NCBI RefSeq assembly: GCF_048403405.1
Contig: NZ_CP183135.1
Reading direction: 5' to 3' (one strand)
From: Escherichia coli
GTDB taxonomy: Bacteria; Pseudomonadota; Gammaproteobacteria; Enterobacterales; Enterobacteriaceae
Length of the DNA stretch: 64,000 nt
How positions within the stretch are numbered: position 1 is the stretch's first letter; each line of letters starts with the position of its first letter. The position numbers and the translations under genes were made by a program. Of this stretch, positions 3,349 to 47,419 are shown one piece after another. The notes below the pieces were generated by a model. The model did not search any database, was not told the DNA's origin, and worked only from the letters and a program-made list of their open reading frames with translations.

Positions 3349-3585
3349 ACACCGGCATTGACATGCCGGGGAAGCCCTTATAGTACAATAATTCTCTATA
3401 TCCAAACTGACCCCGATGAGAAAAGCATGGAGACGTTGAGCACCAATCTGCAACTCGCCCGGCTGGTTGGCGTTCAGGGGACGCCGGCAACCATCATTGG
3501 CGACGAGATGATCCCCGGCGCGGTATCGTGGGAGACCCTTGAGGCGGTGGTGAAAGAAAAACTGGCGGTGGCCCATGCTCAGTAA
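3349..3585 (+). pseudogene. DsbA-family thiol:disulfide oxidoreductase, 3' fragment (ScsC-like), cut by the IS26 remnant
   Basis: C-terminal DsbA-like motif ...LQLARLVGVQGTPATIIGDEMIPGAVSWETLEAVVKEKL; in-frame stop directly after the IS26 boundary, no N-terminal half. Confidence 0.5.
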
Positions 3586-4081
3586 ACTGCGCCGCTGGCT
3601 GCGTGAAGGCGCGATCTTACTGGTTGTGCTGGCTGGCGTGATAATCCTGCTGGATGTCTGGCGTTCTCCGCAGATGCCGGCCATGTTTGACAGCACGCCG
3701 CTGCATACGCTGGACGGGGAAACCGTAACGCTGGCGTCGATCAGTGAAGAACGCCCGGTGCTGCTCTACTTCTGGGCGAGCTGGTGCGGTATCTGCCGTT
3801 TCACCACGCCGGATGTCGCCCGTTTGCAGTCGGAAGGGGAGAGCGTCATGACCATCGCGCTGCGTTCCGGTAATGACGGGGAGGTTTCCCGCTGGTTATC
3901 GCGTAAAAGGGTGACGTTCCCCGTCGTGAATGATAGCGGCGGTGAGATATCACGAAACTGGGAAATCAGCGTCACGCCAACGCTGGTGGTGGTGTCGAAG
4001 GGGCAGGTGGTAACTACGACCAGCGGCTGGACCAGCTACTGGGGCATGAAGTTACGTCTGTGGCGGGCAGCCATGTTTTGA
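3575..4081 (+). CDS. membrane-anchored thioredoxin-like protein (ScsD-like)
   Basis: N-terminal hydrophobic anchor followed by WCGIC (CxxC) thioredoxin motif; 168 aa. Confidence 0.6.
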   Translation: MLSKLRRWLREGAILLVVLAGVIILLDVWRSPQMPAMFDSTPLHTLDGETVTLASISEERPVLLYFWASWCGICRFTTPDVARLQSEGESVMTIALRSGNDGEVSRWLSRKRVTFPVVNDSGGEISRNWEISVTPTLVVVSKGQVVTTTSGWTSYWGMKLRLWRAAMF

Positions 4082-4317
4082 TAGCGTGCCGGGGAAACCC
4101 GGCATTTTTTAACCCATTGTAAGGATGTGTAAAACGAGCGGAGAGCGTGTTTTCTGTTATTTTTGCTGCTTTTTTACCGACGCCAGTTATTATTTTTTAC
4201 CGCTGCCTGATGTTGCAAACCTGAATTGATAATGGCATATCTGTTTTAATTGAATGAAAGTCTGTGATACGTTCAGGCGATTTTTTCGATTTCCATTTTG
4301 ACAGGGATAACAATTCA

Positions 4318-5079
4318 ATGCGCAAGGGTAAAATTATTGTTGCATCAATGATGGTGCTTTGTGTCCTTATTTTTGTTGCGGCGGCGGCATGGTTTATGCT
4401 GTTCCAGGGAGAAATGACGGAGCCGACAGAGGAGGAAAAACAGGCGGCAATTTTACACGCTGCGGGCCTGATGAAATCAGAGACCCAGGATAAAAAATCA
4501 GTCGAAACGCTCTATCATCGTTATATTATTCAACGCCATGTTAATTTAGATTCCGGCGAACTGGTGGCTGGCAGCAGCGCGGACACCGCGCGGCAGAAGT
4601 GTGAAAAACTTGCCCCTGAACGCGACCCAGCGCAGGTTCGTCAGCGCTGTACGGTGGCGGATGTGTTCTTTGTGAAAGATAAAAATAATGAAATTCAGCA
4701 GGTTATCATTCCAGTTACCGGTAAGGGTGCGAAATCCATGATGCATGCGTTTCTTGCTCTGGGGCTGGACGGTCGTACGGTGAGAAATCTGTATTATTAT
4801 CAGCAACGGGAAACGCCGTTTCTGGGGGCTAGGGTGGAAGACGCCAACTGGCGCAAACAGTGGCCAGGGAAACGATTATTAGATAACAGCGGACATCCTG
4901 CATTGAAAATAGTACAGGATAAACCTGAACATGCCGATGAATATACCGTTGACGGTATTTCCGGTGCGACGTTGACATCAACCGGCGTTGAGAAAAGTAT
5001 TAACTACTGGATGGGGCCGCAGGGATATGGTCAATTCTTACAGCGTCTTGCCAGCGATCGAAATAACCTTAATCTTTGA
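4318..5079 (+). CDS. FMN-binding-domain protein (NqrC/RnfG-like), membrane-anchored
   Basis: DGISGATLTS motif typical of covalent-FMN domains; N-terminal TM segment; start placed at in-frame ATG 4318 (MRKGKIIV...). Confidence 0.5.
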   Translation: MRKGKIIVASMMVLCVLIFVAAAAWFMLFQGEMTEPTEEEKQAAILHAAGLMKSETQDKKSVETLYHRYIIQRHVNLDSGELVAGSSADTARQKCEKLAPERDPAQVRQRCTVADVFFVKDKNNEIQQVIIPVTGKGAKSMMHAFLALGLDGRTVRNLYYYQQRETPFLGARVEDANWRKQWPGKRLLDNSGHPALKIVQDKPEHADEYTVDGISGATLTSTGVEKSINYWMGPQGYGQFLQRLASDRNNLNL

Positions 5080-5365
5080 ATATTGCTGTACGCAATAACG
5101 CGTTTTATTTCTGCCTGCCGATAATGAATAATATCACTGTCGGCAGGGGGATTTATTCCTCTGTTACCGCGCCTGCCTTGCCGTTAATTCCATGAGAAAA
5201 ACAGGGAGATAACGTCCCTTTTATCAACGCATAATGTGTGTGTTCATCACGATTTGATGAAATAAGTTTACATAACTTGTCGTCTGCTGACATTTTTATG
5301 ATCCAGGTCATGTATAACGCGACAAAAAGATATGATAATAATTATCATTTGTATTCTTTGGCGGT

Positions 5366-7312
5366 GTGCACGTGCGTAACTTCCGTAACTCTTTGTTGGT
5401 TACTCTCTTTGGCTTGTTTATAAGCATGAGTGTCTGGGCGTCGACGAATTATGCGCCTTTGATTGAAGATATCGAGCAACGTCTTGATAAAACAGCGGAA
5501 CTTTATCAGCAACAGCATGCCGACGAGGCGCGCCGCACGGTACAAATGGCCTATTTTGAGGTGTTCGAGAACCTGGAAGGGCCGATCCGCATCAACATTT
5601 CCGCGCGCAAAAGTTACGAGATGGAGAGCGCATTCGGCGAGATCCGTCGAATGATTGGCGAGAAAAAACCGCTCGCTGACGTCCAGGCGCGCATTGACTG
5701 GCTGAAAGCCGCACTGCGCGAAGTGGAACCGGTGCTGGATGGCGGACATCGTCTGGTGGCCGAAGAGCAGCACAACGCGCTGTCCAGGGACGACATTGCC
5801 GTTCACTGGCAGGAGAGTTTCAGGACGATCGACGATCTGCTGGCGCAGGCGGTCACTGAATATCAGGCCGGGAATTACAGCGTTGCCAGTCAGCACGTTC
5901 AACAGGCGCACTATCAGGGCTTTAAAAACTCTGAGATGGAGATGTCCCTCAGACAAAACCGTTCTGCAAAAGATGCCGCCTCCATTAACCAACAATTCTC
6001 ATCCCTGATTGCGCTGACCGCGCAACCTGACCATCTCAACGATGTCTCCTATCAGGTCACTACGCTGCTACAGGATATCGAGGATATCTTACCCGGCTTG
6101 CCAACCACCCGTGACGATCAGCAGGTTGCCGCAGCGCAAAGCGCAGACAACATTCCGGCGGCGGACGAGGGAAATAACCGCACCGACTGGGCTGAGGTGA
6201 CGACGGGAATTAACCAGAGCATTCAGGACGCGATAGCGCGCTATCAGGGCGGCGATGCGAAGAATGCGATTCTGGATATCCAGGATACCTACTTCGACCG
6301 CTTCGAAGCCAGCGGCATGGAAAACAAAATCGGCTCTCGCGATTCGGCATTTAAAACCACGCTGGAGGCGTATTTTACCCGCCTGGTCAGTCTGATGAAG
6401 GCCGGTCAGCCGGTTGAGCGCCTGAATGCAGAGGCCAGCGCGCTGACGCAGGATCTGCAAAAAGCCGTGACGATGCTGGGCGAAGGCGAAGAAACCCAGT
6501 GGAGTCTGCTGCTCTATAGTCTGATGATCATCGTGCGCGAGGGGCTGGAAGCGCTGCTGATTGTTGCGGCAATCGTGGCCTACATGGTGAAAAACAACCA
6601 TCAGGATAAGCTGCCGCTTATTCGTCAGTCGGTAATTGTGGCGCTGATCGCCAGCGTCATCACCGCCGCTATCTTCCAGATGCTGTTTACTAACTCCGGC
6701 GCCAGCCGTGAACTGCTGGAAGGCATAACGATGCTGATTGCCGTCGTGATGCTGTTCTTTATGAGTTACTGGCTGCTGTCCAAAGTGGAAGCGCGCCACT
6801 GGAAAGCCTGGCTGGAAGGCAAACTGTCTCATTCCCTGTCGCGAGGCTCCCTGGTCGGACTATGGCTGACCAGCTTCCTGGCGGTGTACCGCGAAGGGGC
6901 GGAAACGGTGCTGTTCTATTACGCTCTGATTGGCGATGCAAACACGGTATCCGGCCATATGGCGATTGGCGCCGGTTTTGTGATTGGCTGCGTGGTGCTG
7001 CTGCTCGCCTGGCTGGTGATGCGTTACTCAGTGGTGCGCCTGCCGCTGAAACCCTTCTTTATGTTTACCGGCAGTTTCATGTATCTGATGGCCTTCGTCT
7101 TTGCGGGCAAAGGCGTTCTGGAACTGGTGGAAGGCAAACTGTTCCAGCCTACGTTGATTAACGGCTTCCCTGAAATCAGCTGGCTGGGGATTTATCCCTA
7201 CGTGGAAACGTTGTTACCGCAGGTCGTATTGCTGCTCGCGGCGCTGGTGGCGCTGTGGGTGATGCGGCGCAAAAGCGCGGTTCCCGGGGAGACGATAAAA
7301 AATAACCCATAA
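5366..7312 (+). CDS. FTR1-family iron permease with large N-terminal periplasmic domain (FetM-like)
   Basis: 648 aa; signal peptide, ~370-aa soluble domain, then multi-TM FTR1-type region (...REGLEALLIVAAIVAYM...). Confidence 0.7.
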   Translation: MHVRNFRNSLLVTLFGLFISMSVWASTNYAPLIEDIEQRLDKTAELYQQQHADEARRTVQMAYFEVFENLEGPIRINISARKSYEMESAFGEIRRMIGEKKPLADVQARIDWLKAALREVEPVLDGGHRLVAEEQHNALSRDDIAVHWQESFRTIDDLLAQAVTEYQAGNYSVASQHVQQAHYQGFKNSEMEMSLRQNRSAKDAASINQQFSSLIALTAQPDHLNDVSYQVTTLLQDIEDILPGLPTTRDDQQVAAAQSADNIPAADEGNNRTDWAEVTTGINQSIQDAIARYQGGDAKNAILDIQDTYFDRFEASGMENKIGSRDSAFKTTLEAYFTRLVSLMKAGQPVERLNAEASALTQDLQKAVTMLGEGEETQWSLLLYSLMIIVREGLEALLIVAAIVAYMVKNNHQDKLPLIRQSVIVALIASVITAAIFQMLFTNSGASRELLEGITMLIAVVMLFFMSYWLLSKVEARHWKAWLEGKLSHSLSRGSLVGLWLTSFLAVYREGAETVLFYYALIGDANTVSGHMAIGAGFVIGCVVLLLAWLVMRYSVVRLPLKPFFMFTGSFMYLMAFVFAGKGVLELVEGKLFQPTLINGFPEISWLGIYPYVETLLPQVVLLLAALVALWVMRRKSAVPGETIKNNP

Positions 7313-7349: not shown

Positions 7350-7880
7350 TTGATGACCATGAAGAAAACCCTGATTGCCAGCGCAGTGATGGCCAGCATT
7401 TTCATTGCGCCAGCCGCGTTTGCTTTTAAAGAGTACCCGGCAGGCGAGCCTGTCACCATGAATGAAATGGAGCTGGCGGCCGTTTACCTGCAACCGATTG
7501 ATATGGAACCGCGCGGCATGGGCTTACCGGCAGCAAAAGCCGATGTTCACCTTGAAGCGGATATCCACGCTGTAGAAGGCAATAAAAACGGCTTTGGCGC
7601 AGGGGAATGGATCCCGTACCTGACCATCAGCTACACCCTGGTCAACAACGACACGGGCGAAAAACAGGAAGGCACCTTCATGCCGATGGTTGCCAGCGAT
7701 GGCCCGCACTATGGCGCGAACATCAAAATGATGGGCGTGGGCAACTATAAAGTGACCTACCACATTGAACCGCCGTCAAAAGCCGGGATGCATCGCCATA
7801 CTGACAGCGAAACAGGCGTAGGCCGCTGGTGGAAACCGTTTGATGTGAGCTACGAGTTTAAATATGTCGGTCTGAACTAA
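7350..7880 (+). CDS. periplasmic P19-type iron-binding protein (FetP-like)
   Basis: 176 aa with signal peptide, immediately downstream of the FTR1 permease as in FetMP/P19 systems. Confidence 0.7.
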   Translation: MMTMKKTLIASAVMASIFIAPAAFAFKEYPAGEPVTMNEMELAAVYLQPIDMEPRGMGLPAAKADVHLEADIHAVEGNKNGFGAGEWIPYLTISYTLVNNDTGEKQEGTFMPMVASDGPHYGANIKMMGVGNYKVTYHIEPPSKAGMHRHTDSETGVGRWWKPFDVSYEFKYVGLN

Positions 7881-7983: not shown

Positions 7984-9363
7984 ATGAGTTACTTTTTCGT
8001 CACGACGCTACAGGTCTTTTTCTGCATTGCGCTTCTTTCCGGTGTTCTCTGGAGTCGAAACGATCCTCCCTCTTTACGTCCGCTGACCTGGACGCTGCTG
8101 ACCGGGCTGATTGCCGGCGTGCTGGCGGGACTGTTTATTCACGGCAGCCAACCGGTACAACTGCTGCTGGTTGGGGCGGAGGTCATGGTATCGCTGCTGT
8201 TTGTCCTCAGTTTCTGGTGGGCTTCAACGCGTATCCGCTATCTGTGGCAGGGGATTCTGATTTTCGGCGCTGCCCGCCATTGGGCGCTGGACCCTAATCT
8301 GGGCGGGCTGACCAGTACGCATGTGCTGAATACTGACCTGCTGTTAAACCTGACGGCCGTCGTTCTCGCTTTTGCGATCCTCTGTCTGGCGGGCGTACTC
8401 TGCGCGATGCTGCTGCGGCGTATTCGCGGCCTGTACTGGCCGTTAACGCTGATTCTGCTGGTGATGATCTGGCTGCCGCTGAGCGGCAACCTGCTGTTGT
8501 TGCTGATGAAATTACAGGTTGTTCCGCTGGGAAAATCACTGCTGAGCTTCGTGGCGAAAGTCACAAATAACACGGCGCTGTATAACTGGGCGGGAGCCGC
8601 GCTGCTGCTGGCCCTGGCGCTGTGCTGGCTTCCGGCGCTGTTGCGGGCTTTTCGACAGACGCGGGAAACCGAAGAACCGATTGCTCACCGTCTGGCGCTG
8701 GCGCAGCGTCGCAACGCTTTGCGGCTGTGGTTGGTCACAATCGGCTGCGCGGTGGTCGTTATCGCAGGCCAACTGTGGTGGGATAAAGTGGCCTCGCAGC
8801 CGCCGCAACTCTCTGAAGCCGTGCCCGTAACGCTGGGGAGCGATGGCATGGTGCGCCTGCCGGTTGAACAGCTTCGTGACGGTAAACTGCATCGTTTCGT
8901 CTGGGTGGCGGACGATGGCAAAGCGGTGCGCTTCTTCGTGATTAACCGCTATCCCGACAAGCTGCGTTTTGGCGTGGTGTTCGACGCCTGCCTGCTGTGC
9001 GGCGATCAGGGTTATGTCATGGAGGGCAATCAGGTTATCTGCGTCGCCTGCGGAGTGCATATTTTTATTCCGTCTATCGGCAAGGCCGGTGGCTGTAACC
9101 CGGTGCCGATTGAAAACTGGCACAATGATGAAAAAGAGCTGGTGATCCCCGGTAAAGAACTGGCGACAGGGGTGAACTACTTCTCGACGGTCATGACTAT
9201 TAAAGTGACCGATCCGGTCGATGGTTCAACGTTGACCAATACCTCAGCCGATTACAAATACAGCTATGGCGGCAAGACCTGGTTCTTCTCGTCAGAGGCT
9301 AACTATGAACGCTTCCGTGAAACGCCGGAGCAGTTTGTTCCTGCCGACATGAGGGAGGAATAA
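7984..9363 (+). CDS. polytopic membrane protein with C-terminal Cys-rich metal-binding domain (FetA/Cj1660-like)
   Basis: 459 aa; N-terminal multi-TM half; C-terminal CLLCGDQGY...CVACGVHIF...GGCNPVP and GGKTWFFSSEANYERF. Confidence 0.55.
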   Translation: MSYFFVTTLQVFFCIALLSGVLWSRNDPPSLRPLTWTLLTGLIAGVLAGLFIHGSQPVQLLLVGAEVMVSLLFVLSFWWASTRIRYLWQGILIFGAARHWALDPNLGGLTSTHVLNTDLLLNLTAVVLAFAILCLAGVLCAMLLRRIRGLYWPLTLILLVMIWLPLSGNLLLLLMKLQVVPLGKSLLSFVAKVTNNTALYNWAGAALLLALALCWLPALLRAFRQTRETEEPIAHRLALAQRRNALRLWLVTIGCAVVVIAGQLWWDKVASQPPQLSEAVPVTLGSDGMVRLPVEQLRDGKLHRFVWVADDGKAVRFFVINRYPDKLRFGVVFDACLLCGDQGYVMEGNQVICVACGVHIFIPSIGKAGGCNPVPIENWHNDEKELVIPGKELATGVNYFSTVMTIKVTDPVDGSTLTNTSADYKYSYGGKTWFFSSEANYERFRETPEQFVPADMREE

Positions 9364-9365
9364 TC

Positions 9366-10649
9366 ATGCTGTGGCGGATGTTACGACAATCCTGGGGGCG
9401 CAATTTACGCCGCAAAGTGCTGGCGATAATCACCGTTTTTCTGGCCTCCAGCCTGATCTCGGCGCTGCTGGCGGTGTCCATTGATATCGGCGACAAAATG
9501 TCCAGAGAGCTGAAGTCTTATGGTGCGAACATTTTGATTGAACCCGCCGGACAGGCTGCGCTGCCCGCGCTGTTTAGTGAGAGCAGTAATCCGCTTTCCG
9601 GTCAGGATTTTCTTGATGAAGCCGAGCTGCCGAACATCAAAGATATCTTCTGGCGAAACAACATTGTCGGGTTTGCGCCGATGCTCGGCGGCGAAGCCAG
9701 CGTGGAGGGAGAACCAGTGCGGATTCTGGGCACTTTCTTCAGTCAGCCAGTGGATATTCCTGATGAAGAGGGATATGAGACGGGGCAGAAAACGGTCAGC
9801 CCATACTGGCAGGTGACCGGCGACTGGCCGCAGGAACCCGCAGGCGCAGAGCCGCAGACCTTAGTCGGGCACGCGCTGGCGCGGCAAATGGGCTGGAAAC
9901 CCGGTGATAAGCTGACATTACGTACCGAAGGCGAAGCAGTGCAGGTCACCGTCAGCGGTATCCTCTCCAGCGGCGGCGATGAAGATAACCAACTGGTGAT
10001 GCCGCTAAGCACGGTACAGCACCTGCTGGGGCTCCCCGGAAAAGTGCAGGCGATTCGCGTCTCGGCGCTGACGGTGCCGGAAAACGAACTGTCCCGCCGC
10101 GCGCGGGAAAACCTGGACGCGCTCAATGCCGAAGAGTACGACCTCTGGTATTGCACGGCCTATGTGTCGTCGATCGCGCATCAGCTGGAAGAGGCGATTT
10201 CCGGTGCGGAAGTGCGCCCGGTATGGCAGGTCGCGGCGTCCGAAGGGGTGGTGATCGATAAAATTCAGTTGCTGATGGCGGTCGTTACCGTCGCGGCGCT
10301 GGTGGCTTCCGCAATGGGGATCGCCTCGCTGATGACCAGCACCATTATGGAACGCGCCAAAGAGATCGGTTTGATGAAAGCGCTGGGTGCGCGACAGTGG
10401 CAAATTATGCTGCTGTTCTACCTGGAAGCGGCGTCCAGCGGGCTGGCTGGCGGTGCGCTGGGATGTATTGCCGGGTGGGGGCTGGCGAAAGCGATTGGCG
10501 TCATGCTCTTCGACGCGCCGCTTAATTTTGCCTGGATTGTGGTGCCGTGCGTACTGGTGATTGCGGTACTGATTGCGTTGATCGGCACCTGGTTCCCGGC
10601 CCGGCGGATTGCCCGGCTGTATCCTGTGGAGGTGCTGTATGGCCGCTAA
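9366..10649 (+). CDS. ABC transporter permease, FtsX-like
   Basis: 427 aa; N-terminal TM, large periplasmic domain, C-terminal TM bundle. Confidence 0.7.
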   Translation: MLWRMLRQSWGRNLRRKVLAIITVFLASSLISALLAVSIDIGDKMSRELKSYGANILIEPAGQAALPALFSESSNPLSGQDFLDEAELPNIKDIFWRNNIVGFAPMLGGEASVEGEPVRILGTFFSQPVDIPDEEGYETGQKTVSPYWQVTGDWPQEPAGAEPQTLVGHALARQMGWKPGDKLTLRTEGEAVQVTVSGILSSGGDEDNQLVMPLSTVQHLLGLPGKVQAIRVSALTVPENELSRRARENLDALNAEEYDLWYCTAYVSSIAHQLEEAISGAEVRPVWQVAASEGVVIDKIQLLMAVVTVAALVASAMGIASLMTSTIMERAKEIGLMKALGARQWQIMLLFYLEAASSGLAGGALGCIAGWGLAKAIGVMLFDAPLNFAWIVVPCVLVIAVLIALIGTWFPARRIARLYPVEVLYGR

Positions 10650-11769
10650 ACGTACCATGCTCTGGCTGCTGGTGTGGCGGGCGCTGCGTCTGCGTTTTCA
10701 GCGGGTCAGCGTGGTGTTTGCCGCGCTGATGGTGGGGGCGACCATCGTGACGGCGCTTTCTGCCGTCTGGTTCGACATTAACACCAAAATGAGCGAAGAA
10801 CTGCGCACCTTCGGCGCGAATTTTTACATCGGGCCGGGGCACGGTTCCAGTATGCCGCAGCAGGAGTTGCAGAGCATTCTCGATCAGGCGCCGCAGGGGC
10901 TGGTGCATGGCGCCAGTCCGTGGTTGTACGGCATGGCGCGTACCGAGCTGGAAAAAGTGGTGATGGTTGGCGTGTGGTTCGAGTCGCTGCAAAAACTGGT
11001 GCCGTACTGGCAGGTCACCGGTAGCTGGATTGGCGTTAGTTTTGACGACCGTAATGCGATGATCGGCGTCAAACTGGCGGAACGCCTCAACGTGCAGCCG
11101 GGCGACAGCATCACGCTGGTGGATCACAATCAGCGTAAGAATTTGCAGATTAAAGGCATTGTGGAGTCTGGCGATGCGACGGACAACATGCTGATCGTCA
11201 GCCTCGACGTGGCGCAGGCCTGGCTGCATCAGCCGGGCAAAATCAGCCACGGCTTGCTGAGCGTCAGTAACGATGTCGGCCAGGTGGAGAACTATGCCAG
11301 CCGGTTGCAGGCGCAGTATCCTGACCTGGAGATTCGTCCGGTGCGTAAGGTCTCTGCTTCCGAAGGGCAGGTGCTGGATAAAATTAAAGGTCTGATGGGA
11401 CTGGTCTCGATCGTGATTCTGGCGCTCTCTTCGCTGTGCGTGAATACCACGCTGATGGCGATTGTCGGCGAGCGGGCGCGCGAGTTTGCGCTGCAAAAAG
11501 CGCTTGGTTCCAGCAACGGCGATATCGTGCGGCAAATTCTGCTGGAAACCAGCATCATCGCGCTGGCGGCGGTGGCGTGCGGCTGGGTGCTGGGATATTT
11601 GCTGGCGCAACTGTTGGGATTAACGGTGTTTAATGCCGCCATTTCACTGCGTCTGCCGGTGTTGCCCATTACTCTGGTGTTGTCTTTACTGGTCGCCATT
11701 CTGGCGGCGATTGTTCCGGTGCGACGCGCGGTAAGCGTCGAGCCTGCTAAAGTGCTGAAAGGAGAGTAG
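10639..11769 (+). CDS. ABC transporter permease, FtsX-like (second copy)
   Basis: Paralogous architecture to the preceding gene; start placed at ATG 10639 (MAAKRTML...) overlapping the upstream stop. Confidence 0.7.
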   Translation: MAAKRTMLWLLVWRALRLRFQRVSVVFAALMVGATIVTALSAVWFDINTKMSEELRTFGANFYIGPGHGSSMPQQELQSILDQAPQGLVHGASPWLYGMARTELEKVVMVGVWFESLQKLVPYWQVTGSWIGVSFDDRNAMIGVKLAERLNVQPGDSITLVDHNQRKNLQIKGIVESGDATDNMLIVSLDVAQAWLHQPGKISHGLLSVSNDVGQVENYASRLQAQYPDLEIRPVRKVSASEGQVLDKIKGLMGLVSIVILALSSLCVNTTLMAIVGERAREFALQKALGSSNGDIVRQILLETSIIALAAVACGWVLGYLLAQLLGLTVFNAAISLRLPVLPITLVLSLLVAILAAIVPVRRAVSVEPAKVLKGE

Positions 11770-11773
11770 CGCC

Positions 11774-12469
11774 ATGTCCGTTACGCATATCCCTCAGGTG
11801 GCGATCGAAACCCGCCACTTATACAAACGGTTCGGTGACGTTACCGCCCTGGATGACATTAATCTGCGCATTGCGCAGGGTGAATTTGTCGCCATTATGG
11901 GCGCTTCTGGTTCTGGTAAAACCACGCTGATGAATATTCTGACGTGCCTTGATACGGCGACGGAAGGGCAGGTGTTTCTTGATGGCACCGATGCCGCCGC
12001 GCTGGATGAAGAGGGGCGCCGTCGCTTTCGCGCCGAGAAAATCGGCCTGGTATTTCAGCAGTTCCATTTGATCCCGTTCTTAACTGCGCTGGAAAACATC
12101 ATGCTCGCCCAGCATTACCACAGCGTGGTGGATGAAGCGGCGGCGAGGAAGGTGCTGGAACAGGTAGGGCTTGGGCATCGTGTGACGCACCTGCCGAGCC
12201 AGCTTTCCGGTGGTGAGCAGCAGCGTGTGTGTATCGCCCGGGCGCTGGTCAACGAACCGCCGGTTATTTTCGCGGATGAACCGACGGGCAACCTGGATGA
12301 AGAGAATGAGCAGCGGGTGCTGGATCTGCTCACCGATCTGCATCGTCAGGGGCGCACGATTGTGATGGTGACGCACAACCCTGCGCTTGGGCAGTTTGCC
12401 GACCGTATTCTGCGGCTGCAACACGGTAAATATCTGGGTGAGGAGGCCAATCAACATGCGCTGGCATAA
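11774..12469 (+). CDS. ABC transporter ATP-binding protein
   Basis: Walker [10 protein letters not shown], signature LSGGEQQR, Walker [12 protein letters not shown]. Confidence 0.85.
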
Positions 12470-12941
12470 TGTGCTGTTACTCGCGGCGGCGATCCTGATA
12501 AGCGGGTGTAAAGAAGAAAAGCTGGCGGTCGGGGCACCGGCCCCGGCGCTGGCGGCGTTTGATCTGCAAGGCCAGGAGTCAGGCCTTGAACGCTGGCAAG
12601 GAAAGGCGGTGTACCTGAATTTTTGGTCTGCGGGATGCGGGGGGTGCCTAGCGGAAATGGACACGCTGGAAGCGCTGAGCAAAAAATGGGGCGATAAAGT
12701 GGTGGTTGTGGCGGTCAATACCGACCCTGAAACGGTCAGGATCAACGATCTGCTGGCAAAACATCAGATAACCTATCCGGTGGTGCGCGATCAGCTCAAC
12801 ATTACCCAGGAACGTTATCAGGTGATCGGCACGCCGACCTCCGTACTGATTGACTCCGAAGGACGCGTTCTGGAGCTACACCAGGGTATGCGTAAGCCGT
12901 CTGAGTTAGAGGCCACGTTTGCGCGCCTGGCGGCGCGATGA
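12456..12941 (+). CDS. TlpA-like thioredoxin-fold lipoprotein
   Basis: Lipobox LISGC after start [22 protein letters not shown] motif. Confidence 0.65.
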   Translation: MRWHNVLLLAAAILISGCKEEKLAVGAPAPALAAFDLQGQESGLERWQGKAVYLNFWSAGCGGCLAEMDTLEALSKKWGDKVVVVAVNTDPETVRINDLLAKHQITYPVVRDQLNITQERYQVIGTPTSVLIDSEGRVLELHQGMRKPSELEATFARLAAR

Positions 12942-12965
12942 ACGACGCGTACGGAGAGATACCCA

Positions 12966-13451
12966 ATGGCATTTATCTGGAACGACGAAAGCCTTGCGAT
13001 TCTGCGGGAAAACGCGGGCATCCTCACGACAGAGCAGATAGCGCAACTGCTTCACACTAATATTACCGCCGTGCGGAATATGGCCTATCGGCTGAAACTG
13101 AGCCTTCGGGTGACGGCGTATAATCACCGACGCATAGCGCAGGTTCAGGCGCTTTATGCCTCTGAGACGTTGAGTCTCAAAGAGATCGCGGCGAAAACGG
13201 GGCTGACGGCCAGTACCGTGCAATATATCGTGTACGTGAAATCAAAAAATAAGCCCTACGCCACCACGGAATATGTCTCTTTTGAAACGGAGAACGCCGT
13301 TCATTACCGCGTGCAAAAAGAATTTGTCGATACGGAACGTTCCCTGCTGGACAACATCTCTGATAACACGCGATTTCGTGAACTGTATCTGACGGACGGC
13401 ACTTTTTATTGCGCCCGCAATATTAAGTATGAGGTTTTTATCTCGGAGTAA
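12966..13451 (+). CDS. hypothetical protein with possible helix-turn-helix segments
   Basis: 161-aa ORF, no family recognised; coding-like composition. Confidence 0.4.
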   Translation: MAFIWNDESLAILRENAGILTTEQIAQLLHTNITAVRNMAYRLKLSLRVTAYNHRRIAQVQALYASETLSLKEIAAKTGLTASTVQYIVYVKSKNKPYATTEYVSFETENAVHYRVQKEFVDTERSLLDNISDNTRFRELYLTDGTFYCARNIKYEVFISE

Positions 13452-13572
13452 CCGGAACACGCTGACCTGCCGGTTATCTTCTGGAATCTCCCGTTTTGCG
13501 AAACCGTTCCCGGAAAAATGTCATATTTCTGTCACACTCTATGAGGATTGATAACAACAAGAGGTTGTAGGG

Positions 13573-14316
13573 ATGAAAAAATTGATACTCGCCGCCGCTG
13601 TGGCAGGGGCTGTTTTATTGTCGTCCGCCGCGCAAGCGCAGACAACGCCGGAAGGTTATCAACTGCAACAAGTGTTGATGATGAGCCGACACAACTTGCG
13701 CGCGCCGTTGGCCAATAATGGCAGCGTGCTGGAGCAGTCCACGCCGAATCAGTGGCCGGAGTGGGATGTGCCCGGCGGGCAGCTCACCACGAAAGGCGGT
13801 GTGCTGGAAATTTATATGGGCCACTACATGCGAGAATGGCTGGCGGAGCTGGGGATGGTCACGTCAGGCGAATGCCCGACGCCGGACACGGTATATACCT
13901 ATGCCAACAGTCTGCAACGCACCGTTGCGACGGCACAATTCTTTATCACCGGCGCTTTCCCTGGGTGCGACATTCCGGTACATCATCAGGAAAAAATGGG
14001 CACGATGGACCCAACGTTTAATCCGGTGATCACCGATGACTCTGCGGCGTTTAGCCAGAAAGCGGTGCAGGCGATGGAAAAAGAGCGCAGCCAGATGCAG
14101 CTTGACGACAGCTATCAGCTGCTGGCGCAGATGACGGACTACAAAGATTCACCGTCCTGCAAAGAAAAACAGCAGTGTTCGCTGACCGAAGCCAAAGACG
14201 CCTTTAGGGAAGGTGCGAATAAGCAGGTCATGTCTTCCCAAGCTGACTCGTTGATTAAAATTTCGCGGATCTGGGCCGATTTTTGTCCCGCAAACACATC
14301 GAATCAGCCTATTTAG
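13573..14316 (+). pseudogene. agp: glucose-1-phosphatase (histidine acid phosphatase), 5' portion only
   Basis: Signal peptide plus RHNLRAP active-site motif and close resemblance to E. coli Agp through ...[13 protein letters not shown]; 247 aa instead of ~413. Confidence 0.7.
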
Positions 14317-14357: not shown

Positions 14358-15808
<1,451 letters not shown>

Positions 15809-15819
15809 ATTATCCCACG

Positions 15820-18228
15820 CTAAGACTGTTTTTTGTACAATATGGTGTCGACTGTGCGTAATGAGCGGTATTTTCCGGATCCCAGCTTAAGATTATTACG
15901 CCAGACGTAATCTCCACTCAGATTGATATGTTCCCAGCCCAGGGGAGAAAGATGAGATACCAGTTGCTCATTTATCGGGATACCTTTTCGTTTTAGTGAC
16001 TCAATAGCTCTTTCTATATATACCGTGTTCCACAACGTGATCGCCGCTGTCAGTAACGTCAGCCCGCTGGCGCGGTAACTCTGATTCTCCAGCCCACGAT
16101 CCCTTATTTCACCCAGACGGTGCATAAAGACCGCTCGCGCAAGGGCATTACGGGCCTCACCCTTATTCAGCCCCGCCTGTACGCGTCGGCGCAGACCGGG
16201 ATCACGGAACCAGTCCAGCATAAATAGTGTCCGCTCAATGCGGCCAATCTCTCTCAGCGCTTTGGCAAGTCCATTCTGTTTTGGGTAACTGGCTAACTTT
16301 TTCATCATCAGCGATGCGGTGACTGTCCCCTGCTTAATCGAGGTTGCCAGGCGCAATACCTCATCCCAGTGTGCCTCAATGTCTTTGATATTCAGGCTGG
16401 TTGTTGATATGACGGACTGAAGCCCCGGATAGCGTTCGGCCTTTCCATGAATAAACAGCCGCTTGTCATGAAGATCCCGGATCCTCGGCGCAAAAGCGAA
16501 TCCCAGCAGGTGCATCAGGGCGAAAACATGTTCAGTGAAGCCTGCGGTATCGGTGTAATGCTCGGTAATTTCCAGATCGCTTTCATGGTACAGCAGGCCA
16601 TCAAGCACGTGGGTTGAGTCGCGCACCCGGCTGATCACTTTGGCATAGAACGGGCTGTATTGGTCTGAGATATGCGTATAAATCTGCACGCCCGGCTCCT
16701 GACCATATTTAAGATTGACCTGACCGGCATAACGTCCGTGACTGCCTACCCGAAAGTTCTGCCCGTCTGACGATGATGTTGTCCCGTCGCCCCAGAATGC
16801 GGCCAGAGGCCGCGCTTTCTGAGCGTTGACCAGCTCGGCCAGTGCCGCTGAATAAGTTTCATCTCTGATGTACCATGCCTGAATACCTTCGAGTGACGAT
16901 TTTGTTGCCCCCGGGCAGGACTCCGCCATTTTTGTCAGCCCCAGATTGATGCCGTCGGCCAGAATGGTGGTCAGCAACAGTCTTCCGTCTTTTGGTCTGA
17001 CGTTATTATTTTTGAGGTGCGCGAAGTGACGCGTAAACCCCGTCCAGCTGTCCACTTCTTCCAGTATCTCTGTAATTTTCGGATGAGGAAGCATGCCATA
17101 AACCAAATCGGCAAAGGGCGAAACACCCGAAGGGACGCTGTTCTCCAGCGGAGTGATTTTTACTCCTTTATCTGAAATATCAACATCGGGCAAATCACCG
17201 GCAAGCGCCATCGCGTTAACTTCTTCCAGACGCGATGCAAGAAGCGTCATACGGGCCTGAAGATATGCCTGGCAATCGGTCTGAACGGCCAACTGTAACT
17301 GGTCATTGTGGCGGGATTTCTCAAACTCAGCAGTCGGGATGAGATAATCATCAAAATTTCTGTAGCGGCGCGATCCTTTTACCCAGATATCACCGGAACG
17401 TAGCGCCCCCTTGAGTTCATTCATTACGCAAAACTCGTAGTACTTGCGGTCGATTCCTGAAGGCGTGAGTACCAGTTTTCGCCAGCTTTCAGGGATAAAT
17501 CCTGTTGGCGCCGATAGCGGCACTTTACGAAGTTGTTTACGGTACATTTCCCTGATGGTGTCCAGCGCATCGCTGAGCGTCTGCGCCGCAGGTGTCGCCA
17601 TGAACTGCAATGCTGACAGCATACGCGGGGCGTATTTACGCAGCGTACTGTATTTTTCGGTGATCAGGTGAAGCGGGTCGAAATTGCCCTTACGGGACAG
17701 AAACCGTGTTTCTTCCAGGCTGTTGATGAACTCCTGCCAGGGAAGGACATCTTCTATCGCTGCCCAGGGATCTTCACCGGATTCTCTGGCATGCAGTAGT
17801 GCCTGACCGACAGTAAAATATTGCTTCAACTTGCTCTGGATGAGTTTCCCCGTCAGCTGAAGCCTCTCGGCTTGTGTGCGTTTTGCCTGGCTGAACAGAG
17901 TGCCCAGAATACGTTCGTGCAGTTCGATAACCTCATCAGTCAGTGTGGCCCGCGCTTCCTGAATGACACAAACCAGCGTAGCGTAACGTCTGACATCGGT
18001 GAATTTAGCCAGATCTCTGCTGCTCATTTTCCGGCCCTCACGCGCCAGTTTAAGCAACCTGTTCTGGTGAACGGAAAGTGCAATACCATCAGGCAACCCC
18101 AGCGCAGCGATGGAATTAAGCCGGTCGATATGTTGCAGCACATTTTTACCGTTTATTTTACCCGGAGGCTGTAGCAGCCATGCCAGACGGGAAGGTTGTT
18201 CACCCTCTGATATGAGCAGGCTGTCGAG
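15820..18228 (-). pseudogene. tnpA: Tn3-family (Tn21-subgroup) transposase TnpA, N-terminal ~190 codons removed by IS26
   Basis: The 999-aa track ORF is TnpA-like only downstream of the IS26 boundary; its first ~190 aa are antisense read-through of IS26. Confidence 0.85.
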
Positions 18229-19048
18229 GGCACTGTTGCAAATAGTCGGTGGTGATAAACTTATCATCCCCTTTTGCTGATGGAGCTGCACATGAACCCA
18301 TTCAAAGGCCGGCATTTTCAGCGTGACATCATTCTGTGGGCCGTACGCTGGTACTGCAAATACGGCATCAGTTACCGTGAGCTGCAGGAGATGCTGGCTG
18401 AACGCGGAGTGAATGTCGATCACTCCACGATTTACCGCTGGGTTCAGCGTTATGCGCCTGAAATGGAAAAACGGCTGCGCTGGTACTGGCGTAACCCTTC
18501 CGATCTTTGCCCGTGGCACATGGATGAAACCTACGTGAAGGTCAATGGCCGCTGGGCGTATCTGTACCGGGCCGTCGACAGCCGGGGCCGCACTGTCGAT
18601 TTTTATCTCTCCTCCCGTCGTAACAGCAAAGCTGCATACCGGTTTCTGGGTAAAATCCTCAACAACGTGAAGAAGTGGCAGATCCCGCGATTCATCAACA
18701 CGGATAAAGCGCCCGCCTATGGTCGCGCGCTTGCTCTGCTCAAACGCGAAGGCCGGTGCCCGTCTGACGTTGAACACCGACAGATTAAGTACCGGAACAA
18801 CGTGATTGAATGCGATCATGGCAAACTGAAACGGATAATCGGCGCCACGCTGGGATTTAAATCCATGAAGACGGCTTACGCCACCATCAAAGGTATTGAG
18901 GTGATGCGTGCACTACGCAAAGGCCAGGCCTCAGCATTTTATTATGGTGATCCCCTGGGCGAAATGCGCCTGGTAAGCAGAGTTTTTGAAATGTAAGGCC
19001 TTTGAATAAGACAAAAGGCTGCCTCATCGCTAACTTTGCAACAGTGCC
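18229..19048 (+). mobile_element. IS26 copy 1 (820 bp)
   Basis: 14-bp IRs GGCACTGTTGCAAA at 18229 and ...TTTGCAACAGTGCC at 19048. Confidence 0.95.
18292..18996 (+). CDS. tnpA: IS26 transposase Tnp26
   Basis: [57 protein letters not shown]... Confidence 0.9.
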   Translation: MNPFKGRHFQRDIILWAVRWYCKYGISYRELQEMLAERGVNVDHSTIYRWVQRYAPEMEKRLRWYWRNPSDLCPWHMDETYVKVNGRWAYLYRAVDSRGRTVDFYLSSRRNSKAAYRFLGKILNNVKKWQIPRFINTDKAPAYGRALALLKREGRCPSDVEHRQIKYRNNVIECDHGKLKRIIGATLGFKSMKTAYATIKGIEVMRALRKGQASAFYYGDPLGEMRLVSRVFEM

Positions 19049-44611: not shown

Positions 44612-44746
44612 TGTAATGTTTCAACACCATGTATTAATTGTGTTTATTTGTAAAATTAATTTTTCTGACAATAACATTTCTCGTTGATAATGAGAATCAT
44701 TATTGACATAATTGTTATTATTTTACTGTGTAGGAGCTGTTTGATT

Positions 44747-46471
44747 ATGATCCTGCCCTCTGAAAAATCCGCCACAGATGTGGCTGCGCAGTGCTTCCTG
44801 AATGCCTTGATTCGTGAAACCAAAGACTGGCAACTGGCGGAATACCCGCCAGACGAATTGATTATCCCGCTGGACGAACAGAAGTCGCTCCATTTCAGAG
44901 TGGCTTATTTCTCCCCAACCCAGCATCACCGCTTTGCATTTCCTGCTCATCTGGTCACGGCATCAGGCAGTTATCCTGTCGACTTTACCACTCTCTCCCG
45001 GCTTATTATTGATAAGCTCCGGCATCAACTTTTTCTGCCAGTTCCCCTCTGCGAAACTTTCCACCAACGCGTGCTGGAAAGCTACGCCCATACGCAACAG
45101 ACAATTGATGCCCGCCATGACTGGGCCATCCTGCGTGAAAAAGCGTTGAATTTTGGCGAGGCTGAGCAGGCACTGCTGACAGGACACGCTTTCCACCCTG
45201 CACCTAAGTCTCATGAACCGTTTAACCGCCAGGAAGCTGAACGATACCTGCCTGACATGGCACCTCACTTCCCGCTGCGGTGGTTTTCGGTGGATAAAAC
45301 GCAAATCGCTGGTGAAAGTCTGCATCTTAACCTTCAACAGCGGTTGACGCGATTTGCCGCAGAAAATGCGCCCCAGTTACTCAACGAATTAAGTGACAAT
45401 CAATGGCTGTTCCCGCTGCACCCGTGGCAGGGAGAATATCTTTTGCAGCAAGTGTGGTGCCAGGCACTTTTTGCTAAAGGACTTATCAGAGACTTAGGCG
45501 AGGCCGGCACGTCGTGGCTGCCGACCACCTCTTCCCGCTCCCTCTACTGTGCTACCAGCCGCGATATGATCAAGTTCTCCCTGAGCGTTCGGCTGACCAA
45601 CTCCGTCCGTACTCTGTCTGTGAAAGAGGTGGAGCGAGGAATGCGCCTGGCACGTCTGGCGCAAACCGACGGCTGGCAGATGCTACAGGCCCGCTTCCCT
45701 ACTTTCCGGGTAATGCAGGAGGACGGCTGGGCCGGGCTGCGCGATCTTAACGGCAACATCATGCAGGAAAGTTTGTTTTCCCTGCGTGAAAACCTGCTGC
45801 TGGAGCAGCCGCAAAGCCAGACCAACGTTCTGGTTTCCCTGACTCAGGCCGCACCGGATGGCGGTGATTCGCTGCTGGTTTCGGCGGTAAAACGCCTGAG
45901 CGATCGCCTCGGTATCACTGTGCAACAGGCCGCCCACGCATGGGTCGATGCTTACTGTCAGCAGGTGCTGAAGCCTCTGTTTACGGCTGAAGCGGATTAC
46001 GGCCTGGTGCTGCTGGCGCATCAGCAAAATATTCTTGTGCAGATGCTTGGGGATCTGCCGGTCGGATTTATTTACCGTGACTGCCAGGGCAGCGCGTTTA
46101 TGCCTCACGCGACAGAGTGGCTCGATACCATTGACGAGGCGCAGGCGGAAAATATTTTCACCCGTGAGCAGTTGCTGCGCTATTTCCCTTATTACCTGCT
46201 GGTTAACTCCACTTTTGCCGTAACTGCTGCGCTGGGTGCTGCCGGGCTGGACAGCGAAGCGAATCTGATGGCTCGTGTACGAACATTGCTGGCTGAAGTG
46301 CGTGACCAGGTGACTCATAAAACCTGTCTCAACTATGTTCTGGAAAGTCCGTACTGGAACGTAAAAGGTAACTTTTTCTGTTATCTGAACGATCATAACG
46401 AGAACACCATCGTTGACCCTTCGGTGATCTATTTTGATTTCGCTAACCCGCTGCAGGCTCAGGAGGTCTGA
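44747..46471 (+). CDS. iucA: aerobactin synthetase IucA
   Basis: 574 aa from ATG 44747 (MILPSEKSATDVAAQCFLNAL...), IucA/IucC family. Confidence 0.85.
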   Translation: MILPSEKSATDVAAQCFLNALIRETKDWQLAEYPPDELIIPLDEQKSLHFRVAYFSPTQHHRFAFPAHLVTASGSYPVDFTTLSRLIIDKLRHQLFLPVPLCETFHQRVLESYAHTQQTIDARHDWAILREKALNFGEAEQALLTGHAFHPAPKSHEPFNRQEAERYLPDMAPHFPLRWFSVDKTQIAGESLHLNLQQRLTRFAAENAPQLLNELSDNQWLFPLHPWQGEYLLQQVWCQALFAKGLIRDLGEAGTSWLPTTSSRSLYCATSRDMIKFSLSVRLTNSVRTLSVKEVERGMRLARLAQTDGWQMLQARFPTFRVMQEDGWAGLRDLNGNIMQESLFSLRENLLLEQPQSQTNVLVSLTQAAPDGGDSLLVSAVKRLSDRLGITVQQAAHAWVDAYCQQVLKPLFTAEADYGLVLLAHQQNILVQMLGDLPVGFIYRDCQGSAFMPHATEWLDTIDEAQAENIFTREQLLRYFPYYLLVNSTFAVTAALGAAGLDSEANLMARVRTLLAEVRDQVTHKTCLNYVLESPYWNVKGNFFCYLNDHNENTIVDPSVIYFDFANPLQAQEV

Positions 46472-47419
46472 ATGTCTGGGGCAAACATTGTTCACAGCGG
46501 ATATGGACTGCGCTGTGAAAAACTCGACAAGCCTCTGAATCTTGGCTGGGGGCTGGACAATAGCGCGGTGTTGCACTGGCCCGGGGAGCTGCCAACAGGG
46601 TGGCTGTGCGACGCGCTGGATCAGATATTTATCGCCGCACCACAACTTTCAGCAGTGGTTCTTCCCTGGTCCGAATGGTGTGAGGAGCCACAGGCGCTGA
46701 CGCTTTTCGGACAGGTACAAAGCGACATTATCCATCGTTCCGCTTTCTGGCAGTTACCGTTATGGCTGAGTTCTCCGGCAAACCGGGCCTCCGGTGAAAT
46801 GGTTTTTGATGCAGAGCGTGAGATTTATTTCCCGCAGCGCCCCCCCCGTCCGCAGGGTGAAGTTTATCGTCGTTACGATCCACGCATTCGCAGGATGCTG
46901 AGTTTCCGCATTGCCGATCCCGTTTCTGATGCAGAACGTTTCACTCGCTGGATGAACGATCCGCGCGTTGAGTATTTCTGGGAGCAAAGTGGCTCACTGG
47001 AGGTTCAGATCGCCTATCTGGAACGCCAGCTCACCAGTAAACATGCATTCCCGCTGATTGGTTGTTTCGACGATCGGCCGTTCAGTTATTTCGAAATCTA
47101 CTGGGCGGCGGAAGACCGCATTGGTCGCCACTATTCGTGGCAGCCCTTTGACCGTGGCCTGCATCTGCTGGTTGGTGAACAGCAATGGCGCGGAGCCCAC
47201 TATGTGCAAAGCTGGCTGCGCGGGGTGACACATTACCTGCTGCTGAATGAGCCACGTACGCAGCGCACAGTACTGGAGCCACGCACCGATAACCAGCGCC
47301 TGTTCCGCCATCTTGAGCCTGCGGGATACCGGACAATTAAAGAGTTCGACTTCCCACATAAACGCTCGCGCATGGTGATGGCGGATCGTCATCACTTCTT
47401 CACGGAGGTCGGTCTGTAA
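46472..47419 (+). CDS. iucB: N6-hydroxylysine acetyltransferase IucB
   Basis: 315 aa, position in the iuc operon. Confidence 0.85.
   Translation: MSGANIVHSGYGLRCEKLDKPLNLGWGLDNSAVLHWPGELPTGWLCDALDQIFIAAPQLSAVVLPWSEWCEEPQALTLFGQVQSDIIHRSAFWQLPLWLSSPANRASGEMVFDAEREIYFPQRPPRPQGEVYRRYDPRIRRMLSFRIADPVSDAERFTRWMNDPRVEYFWEQSGSLEVQIAYLERQLTSKHAFPLIGCFDDRPFSYFEIYWAAEDRIGRHYSWQPFDRGLHLLVGEQQWRGAHYVQSWLRGVTHYLLLNEPRTQRTVLEPRTDNQRLFRHLEPAGYRTIKEFDFPHKRSRMVMADRHHFFTEVGL

Follow-up and report, generated by a model that had tools for sequence, protein, structure and literature searches.

FlsE, encoded at the 3' end of the fetMP-fls iron-uptake cluster, is most likely a small DNA-binding protein, predicted to consist of two successive helix-turn-helix (HTH) units followed by a beta-rich domain. 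The function that we tentatively favor for it, somewhat short of an even chance, is that of an accessory transcription modulator which would be induced by iron starvation together with its operon. That FlsE is a folded HTH protein can be stated with high confidence; for a regulatory link to iron, our confidence is moderate to low.

A conserved gene at the end of an iron-uptake operon

We analyzed flsE in a 64,000-nucleotide stretch of Escherichia coli DNA (contig NZ_CP183135.1; here called the window). The initial annotation had described an intact open reading frame (ORF) of 161 codons lying between an iron cluster and agp, with a product of no recognizable family. The ORF is exactly as described, with the fetMP-fls cluster on its 5' side and an agp-type gene starting at position 13573 on its 3' side (Table 1). 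Its product corresponds to WP_000874189.1, a "hypothetical protein" in the RefSeq annotation of an identical plasmid segment, and to ORF-R8 of pUO-StVR2; no curated Pfam or NCBIfam family covers it. The genes of the cluster were named fetM, fetP, flsD, flsA, flsB, flsC, flsT, flsE, and flsF on this Salmonella plasmid, and FlsE is the product of the eighth co-oriented gene in clusters of the pUO-StVR2 type (PMC7285068). Literature searches by accession and by gene or cluster name found no other paper that mentions flsE.

Table 1. Positions in the window of flsE, its operon, and the features discussed in the text
Feature	Position	Strand	Description
Fur box	5333..5347	+	Perfect 7-1-7 match, TGATAAT-A-ATTATCA; ~80 nt 5' of the annotated fetM start; overlaps a promoter-like -10
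fetM	5426-7312	+	ORF; FTR1-family permease (Pfam FTR1 in the Citrobacter orthologue)
fetP	7350-7880	+	ORF; P19/FetP-type periplasmic iron protein (Pfam Iron_transport in the Citrobacter orthologue)
flsD	7984-9363	+	ORF; "Fe-S-containing" membrane protein (Pfam FtrD-like in the Citrobacter orthologue)
flsA	9366-10649	+	ORF; FtsX-type permease
flsB	10639-11769	+	ORF; FtsX-type permease
flsC	11774-12469	+	ORF; ABC ATPase (ABC_tran)
flsT	12456-12941	+	ORF; TlpA-family thioredoxin (Redoxin)
Shine-Dalgarno-like GGAGAG	12953..12958	+	7 nt 5' of the flsE ATG; read from the sequence
flsE CDS	12966..13451	+	ATG start; 161 aa plus stop (ORF list and sequence)
HTH repeat 1	12978..13106	+	Predicted GcrA/Myb-like three-helix unit; residues ~5-47; AF2 helices 7-16/22-28/33-42
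HTH repeat 2	13119..13241	+	Predicted basic three-helix unit; residues ~52-92; AF2 helices 54-65/71-78/82-92; pI 9.8
C-terminal beta domain	13254..13448	+	Acidic; residues ~97-161 (65 residues); AF2 beta-rich 99-160
flsF	13573..14207 (ORF region 13573-14316)	+	5' fragment of an agp-type histidine phosphatase gene; PF00328, residues 30-187 only

The genes from fetM to flsT share one orientation, and the gaps between them are short or overlapping. Every orthologous locus fetched has an identical Fur box in front of fetM, and a putative Fur box has been described for the cluster (PMC7285068). The flsT stop codon (12939-12941) leaves a spacer of 24 nt before flsE, and neither a promoter-like nor a terminator-like site turned up there in consensus scans. 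The sole nearby promoter-like match is weak and lies inside flsT (12658-12687), and no terminator-like structure was found 3' of flsE (z-score 0.05). Because of the short spacer, the ribosome-binding site of its own, and the lack of an intervening promoter or terminator signal, flsE is most likely expressed from the Fur-repressed fetM promoter only; it would be co-transcribed with the operon and induced by iron starvation.

The fetM promoter carries two further blocks that are kept in most of the fet loci fetched, namely, TTTACATAACTTG (5267-5279) and ATGATCCAGGTCATG (5298-5312). One block is an imperfect palindrome located just 3' of a TTGACA hexamer and resembles an FNR/CRP-type half-site pair. 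Neither block occurs at the loci of the other FlsE homologues. We considered the conserved promoter blocks TTTACAYAAYTTG and ATGATCCWGGTCATG as an operator for FlsE and rejected this, as they are absent from the loci of other FlsE homologues and thus cannot be tied to FlsE. Upstream of fetM are a thioredoxin/redoxin-like gene (3575-4081) and a gene with an FMN_bind domain (4264-5079; GC content, 47.5%). Both also precede the Citrobacter clusters; therefore, the conserved unit is larger than fetM to flsE.

Downstream of flsE, the blastn alignment of flsF with the Citrobacter agp gene ends at 14207; the full-length Citrobacter gene encodes 413 amino acids. On the minus strand, flsF is followed by an IS110-family transposase gene (14737-15741) and then by one of the Tn3 family (15820-18819); presumably, agp was cut here by the border of the resistance region.

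The operon functions without FlsE

Fur-repressed secondary regulators are known from within other iron-uptake clusters, such as the sigma factor FecI and the AraC-type regulators YbtA and PchR. FlsE might likewise be a cluster-specific activator that fetMP-fls requires, given its position within an iron-uptake cluster with a Fur box and a weak match to the Pfam model Sigma70_r4_2. Published experiments have largely refuted this idea, and we regard it as very improbable. A low-copy vector carrying a 5,566-bp fragment, with fetMP-flsDA and its native promoter region, restored a deletion mutant; in S. Typhimurium ATCC 14028, a strain devoid of the plasmid and thus of flsE, it improved both iron-limited growth and replication inside macrophages (PMC7285068). 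The fetM promoter and transport therefore work without flsE, so FlsE is not an obligatory activator, and any effect of FlsE on its operon would be modulatory at most. Most homologous clusters also lack flsE. In the same study, the cluster also benefited growth in an iron-independent way, and the authors left possible "a new regulatory mechanism" with effects on other uptake systems (PMC7285068).

The protein itself does not look like a sigma factor either. UniProt gives it the automatic name "Sigma-70, region 4"; we rejected this assignment, since no Sigma70_r2 region is present and the score against TIGR02937 is 15.8 bits versus a cutoff of 42.9. The match to Sigma70_r4_2 (PF08281; 31.1 bits, cutoff 25.7) is restricted to FlsE residues 20 to 44 and to profile positions 27 to 51 of 54, a stretch that corresponds to a generic HTH core. 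FlsE may thus be likened to FecI, YbtA, and PchR in logic only, as a putative DNA-binding protein within an uptake cluster preceded by a Fur box. Unlike them, it has neither sigma region 2 nor an AraC fold, it is encoded at the 3' end of its operon, and the promoter is active without it.

Distribution and origin of flsE

To place flsE in its evolutionary context, we examined its distribution on plasmids and chromosomes. A 2-kb segment around the gene is 100% identical in many E. coli IncF plasmids, and flsE is intact on at least 830 plasmids at ≥99% identity. The co-occurrence of FetP (852 plasmid records) and FlsE (843 records) was discarded as independent evidence because it reflects one near-identical DNA segment. 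More informative are the chromosomal homologues in other genera, which have 58 to 81% identity overall. Sequences with 73 to 81% identity come from Citrobacter amalonaticus, C. farmeri, C. youngae, and related species, as well as from Intestinirhabdus alba; those of Phytobacter ursingii and of a genome labeled Citrobacter sp. MNAZ 1397 have 63%. In these Citrobacter, Intestinirhabdus, and Phytobacter chromosomes, flsE closes a complete fetMP-fls cluster, starting 24 to 27 nt behind flsT, and a Shine-Dalgarno-like GGAG, GGGAG, or AGAG motif is kept at an equal distance in all orthologous flsE loci. Conservation thus extends beyond the plasmid lineage, a point on which the initial annotation had made its reading of flsE depend.

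The genes 3' of flsE vary: Citrobacter has tauE-like, arsR-like, and agp genes, and Phytobacter has an HTH_17/PIN pair. Since the downstream genes change between lineages, flsE is linked to the iron cluster and not to agp. In Citrobacter chromosomes (compared at locus L009, 10462-12097), ~1.6 kb separate flsE from agp and contain a TauE-family gene and a 235-amino-acid ArsR/HTH_5-type gene; the corresponding stretch of the plasmid (window positions 13424 to 13485) has only ~120 nt between flsE and agp, and the TauE and ArsR genes are missing.

Compared with the Citrobacter orthologues, flsE has a dN/dS ratio of ~0.04 to 0.2, figures that are rough, upper-level indications because dS is saturated. 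Its dN (0.11 to 0.29) is similar to that of flsT and ~10-fold above that of fetP or flsC. These values indicate that flsE is under purifying selection. Together with its conservation across genera, this excludes a spurious ORF, and flsE is a real conserved gene, more than a chance ORF. A non-functional remnant or a miscalled frame is accordingly hard to credit: while the product is annotated merely as "hypothetical," the ORF is intact on the plasmids and in several genera, dN/dS is well below 1, the predicted fold is confident, and the Shine-Dalgarno motif is conserved.

The cluster as a whole is far more widespread than flsE. FetMP-Fls or FetMP-FetABCDEF clusters are found in E. coli F11, S. 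Typhimurium (pUO-StVR2), Yersinia pestis, and Campylobacter jejuni, and FlsT orthologues with 55 to 79% identity occur in Klebsiella, Raoultella, Pantoea, Sodalis, Pectobacterium, Brenneria, Yersinia, and Serratia. The clusters fetched from Raoultella ornithinolytica and Pectobacterium carotovorum both end at flsT and contain no FlsE-like sequence; flsE has also been reported as not conserved and as absent from the Yersinia and Campylobacter clusters (PMC7285068). Where it is present, in Citrobacter, Phytobacter, and Intestinirhabdus, the gene has the same co-oriented, operon-like arrangement. When 100,044 species were scanned, each represented by one genome, FlsE relatives were recovered at only 11 loci, and all homologues that we found come from Enterobacteriaceae. 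FlsE is therefore not a conserved component of FetMP-Fls systems.

One further cluster, from Enterobacter sp. EA-1 (L019; CP025776.1), seemed at 42% identity to be a divergent locus that retains flsE. We rejected this candidate because its low identity reflects frameshifts: in blastn, its fetMP-fls-flsE region has 77% nucleotide identity to the window, 194 gaps over 8 kb, and no long ORFs. Either an indel-rich, poor assembly or pseudogenization would account for this, and we did not count the locus as independent deep conservation.

The simplest history given these results is that flsE joined the operon once, at its 3' end, in the Citrobacter/Phytobacter/Intestinirhabdus branch, was retained, and reached IncF plasmids when these captured the chromosomal segment. 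The closest sampled chromosome has only 82% DNA identity to the plasmid segment; thus, the actual donor is not among the chromosomes sampled.

Two predicted HTH units form the N-terminal half of FlsE

An AlphaFold2 (AF2) model of FlsE, built with 14 homologues, has a mean pLDDT of 84 and consists of two successive three-helix units and a beta-rich domain (Table 1); the relative orientation of the domains is unreliable (pTM, 0.52). The two HTH-like stretches that the initial annotation had pointed out both fall on helix 2, the turn, and helix 3 of these units, and Pfam HTH models match both. Repeat 1 is covered by the Sigma70_r4_2 match discussed above and contains the motif W-x2-E...AG...IA..L...AVRNMAYRLxL, whereas models of the HTH_24, HTH_IclR, and HTH_AsnC type match residues 62 to 89, in repeat 2. 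An NCBIfam search of FlsE gave nothing over the cutoffs, and its match to the prolyl aminopeptidase model TIGR01249 was dismissed as noise (19 bits versus a cutoff of 260). Sequence searches of the PDB gave nothing significant with the family profile (best E value, 0.75) or with the N-terminal half (best E value, 0.11).

An exhaustive profile search of 1.84 billion representative proteins returned 291 matches, of which only ~10 are full-length relatives of FlsE. Most of the others are longer proteins with two to eight copies of an FlsE-type HTH unit, W-[TS]-x-E-E-x3-L...IA..L.R...AV..KA..LGL, and in BLASTP repeat 1 of FlsE aligns onto their repeats. Some of these multi-repeat proteins exceed the Pfam threshold for GcrA, e.g., P0050 (54 bits) and P0109 (27.5 bits). 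In the same vein, FlsE residues 5 to 89 match positions 97 to 185 of the 319-position profile phrog_323, "transcriptional regulator, D5-like" (E value, 2.2e-11). That label is an annotation with no tested function behind it, and FlsE differs from the PHROG 323 multi-repeat HTH proteins of phages and mobile elements in having two repeats only and a distinct C-terminal domain. A tblastn search of FlsE against 50,697 phage genomes gave zero matches; thus, despite its PHROG matches, FlsE is not a recognizable phage gene.

The HTH reading holds, and DNA binding is the role most naturally inferred from it. The residues of repeat 1 that are invariant (R37, N38, A40, R42, L47, and R48) cluster in helix 3 and directly after it; this concentration and the basic character of repeat 2 fit a bipartite DNA-reading head, which the two units probably form together in the manner of R2R3 Myb proteins (6kks/1h89) or of the N terminus of the Tc3 transposase (1u78). 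The likeness to these two-HTH heads has limits: no Myb or transposase Pfam model matches FlsE over threshold, there is no DDE catalytic domain, and the relative orientation of the two units is uncertain in the model.

The closest structure to FlsE is GcrA, and SANT domains and CoREST are also among the fold matches. In the model, repeat 1 appears as a structural twin of the DNA-binding domain of GcrA from Caulobacter crescentus (PDB 5yiu; PF07750). GcrA is a sigma-70-associated factor that binds sigma-70 and recognizes CcrM-methylated GANTC sites. FlsE differs from it in having a second HTH and in carrying the beta domain where GcrA has its linker and its sigma-70-binding C-terminal region; it also occurs in Enterobacteriaceae, not in Alphaproteobacteria, and has no known link to CcrM methylation. 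Because FlsE has no Pfam GcrA match, no sigma-binding C-terminal region, and a different taxonomic range, it is not a member of the GcrA family. These matches bear on another reading, in which FlsE would be a protein-protein adaptor that docks onto RNA polymerase or another regulator and not primarily a sequence-specific DNA binder. We consider such a role improbable. The closest structure, the SANT and CoREST matches, and the consistent pairing of FlsE paralogues with a CaiF/GrlA-like regulator (see below) would agree with it, but the likeness to GcrA is limited to the DNA-binding domain, with no counterpart in FlsE of the sigma-binding region. Moreover, the invariant R37, N38, R42, and R48 are located in or just after helix 3 of repeat 1, the DNA-reading helix of HTH domains, and repeat 2 is strongly basic.

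An orphan C-terminal domain

The C-terminal domain is conserved at F106, D122, L142, and D144-G145-T146. It matches phrog_20193, a 79-position profile of unknown function, with an E value of 9e-9; otherwise, in a collection of 5.8 billion proteins, it was found only in E. coli plasmid fragments and in hypothetical proteins of Salmonella. A search for structural relatives of the domain found none. It has no conserved Cys or His: the whole of FlsE contains one Cys and three His, of which one each are in the C-terminal domain, unconserved. Given a C-terminal domain without conserved Cys or His, FlsE has no obvious metal sensor, and FlsE gave no match over threshold to metal-sensing regulator families of the Fur, ArsR/SmtB, and Rrf2 types. 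Most plausibly, this is an orphan domain for oligomerization or partner binding. FlsE can be classed broadly as an HTH DNA-binding protein of narrow distribution whose C-terminal domain is an orphan.

Distant relatives and mobile contexts

Relatives of FlsE outside the fetMP-fls cluster occupy several kinds of neighborhoods. One is related to iron. In Salmonella enterica, the homologue P0041 (55% identity) is encoded between a gene for a FepA-family TonB-dependent siderophore receptor and a second gene for a TonB-dependent siderophore receptor, which is followed by a YncE-like propeller gene. A perfect Fur box precedes the first receptor gene. A terminator-like hairpin separates P0041 from the FepA-family receptor gene, so their co-transcription is doubtful. 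The locus is a second, independent link of the FlsE family to iron uptake.

Another group comprises more distant paralogues of 172 to 180 amino acids with 41 to 44% identity, which are always paired with a divergent CaiF/GrlA-like gene. This pair is present at loci L006, L017, L018, and L026-L028 (at ~9140-10530 of each), often with a gene for an MCP-signal-domain protein downstream. In C. braakii, one paralogue copy follows a nonribosomal peptide synthetase (NRPS) gene and two genes for ABC exporters, and a second copy is close to fimbrial genes. In Salmonella, the pair is part of an ICE-like island that contains ArdC, TraI_2, integrase, and FlhDC-like genes, which suggests a mobile two-gene regulatory module; a truncated Salmonella paralogue adjoins a gene for a salicylate-synthase/aryl-AMP-ligase fusion. 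The homologue P0043 is encoded in an island that also has IS66, PerC, and Kiwa genes. From these neighborhoods, the FlsE family belongs to the accessory, mobile genome of Enterobacteriaceae, and several of its contexts, though not all, are related to iron or siderophores. In one C. braakii locus (L018), the CaiF/GrlA-like gene is followed by a convergent intergenic region with a perfect Fur-box match (9100-9114); the sister locus L017 has none, and the match may be due to chance.

These contexts raise the alternative that FlsE is a hitch-hiking DNA-binding protein of mobile-element origin, with a function unrelated to iron, whose gene merely landed at the operon end in one lineage. It could then be an ICE- or phage-type regulator, an anti-silencer, or a partner of island-encoded regulators. 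We hold this to be unlikely, though it is the rival to be taken most seriously. Both halves of FlsE match PHROG families (phrog_323 and phrog_20193), and the GC content of flsE (49%) is below that of the cluster genes (53 to 59%), which together suggest a mobile-element origin. Paralogues are found in ICE-like islands next to a divergent CaiF/GrlA-like gene, or else with IS66, PerC, and Kiwa genes as neighbors; in addition, flsE is missing from most fetMP-fls clusters and is dispensable for cluster function (PMC7285068). Yet the gene has retained the same position, short spacer, and Shine-Dalgarno motif despite divergence to 63% identity and changed downstream genes, and it is under purifying selection. 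Also against this rival are P0041, an independent homologue set between siderophore-receptor genes, and the lack of tblastn matches in phage genomes.

Proposed role and significance

The initial annotation had suggested that the protein might regulate the adjacent metal-uptake cluster. The HTH reading, the conservation linked to the cluster, and the second iron context at the P0041 locus support part of this proposal. Regulation of the adjacent cluster in particular fared less well: most fetMP-fls clusters lack flsE, the native promoter works without it, distant paralogues are found in islands without iron genes, and conserved Cys and His residues, which would point to metal sensing, are lacking in the C-terminal domain.

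We therefore favor, still tentatively, an accessory modulator. Under iron starvation, the Fur-repressed fetM promoter would fire, and flsE would be made as the last gene of the operon. FlsE would be cytoplasmic, with the GcrA/Myb-like first HTH and the generic, basic second HTH reading DNA and the beta domain mediating oligomerization or partner binding. It might then act as feedback on its own operon or modulate other genes in trans; it would not be the on-switch of the operon. In this scheme, we infer the co-transcription, the DNA binding, and any regulatory target.

A bolder version, which we regard as a long shot, is that FlsE founds a new enterobacterial regulator family, with a tandem GcrA-like HTH head and a new beta domain, that is wired into Fur-controlled iron-uptake loci and acts in trans from IncF plasmids. 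If so, an iron-starvation-induced plasmid operon would reprogram chromosomal genes in pandemic E. coli lineages, an instance of plasmid-chromosome crosstalk, which could in addition account for the growth benefit, independent of iron, that the cluster has been reported to confer. More than 800 sequenced plasmids, for the most part conjugative IncF plasmids from clinical E. coli, carry the gene together with a functional iron-uptake cluster. If FlsE is a trans regulator induced by iron starvation, it would give plasmids a route to alter host gene expression during infection.

For annotation, the gain is that a "hypothetical protein" can be described as two GcrA/Myb-like HTH units with an orphan beta domain. 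Its narrow origin in chromosomal clusters of the Citrobacter/Phytobacter type is also defined, and a sigma factor, a core transporter component, and an obligatory activator are excluded. On present evidence, nothing about FlsE is mechanistically surprising.

Elsewhere in the window, a near-consensus 19-bp Fur box, GATAATGAGAATCATTATT (44686-44704), is located at the start of four co-oriented ORFs (44684-50435). These ORFs encode 595, 315, 580, and 425 amino acids and, by size and order, resemble the aerobactin operon iucABCD.
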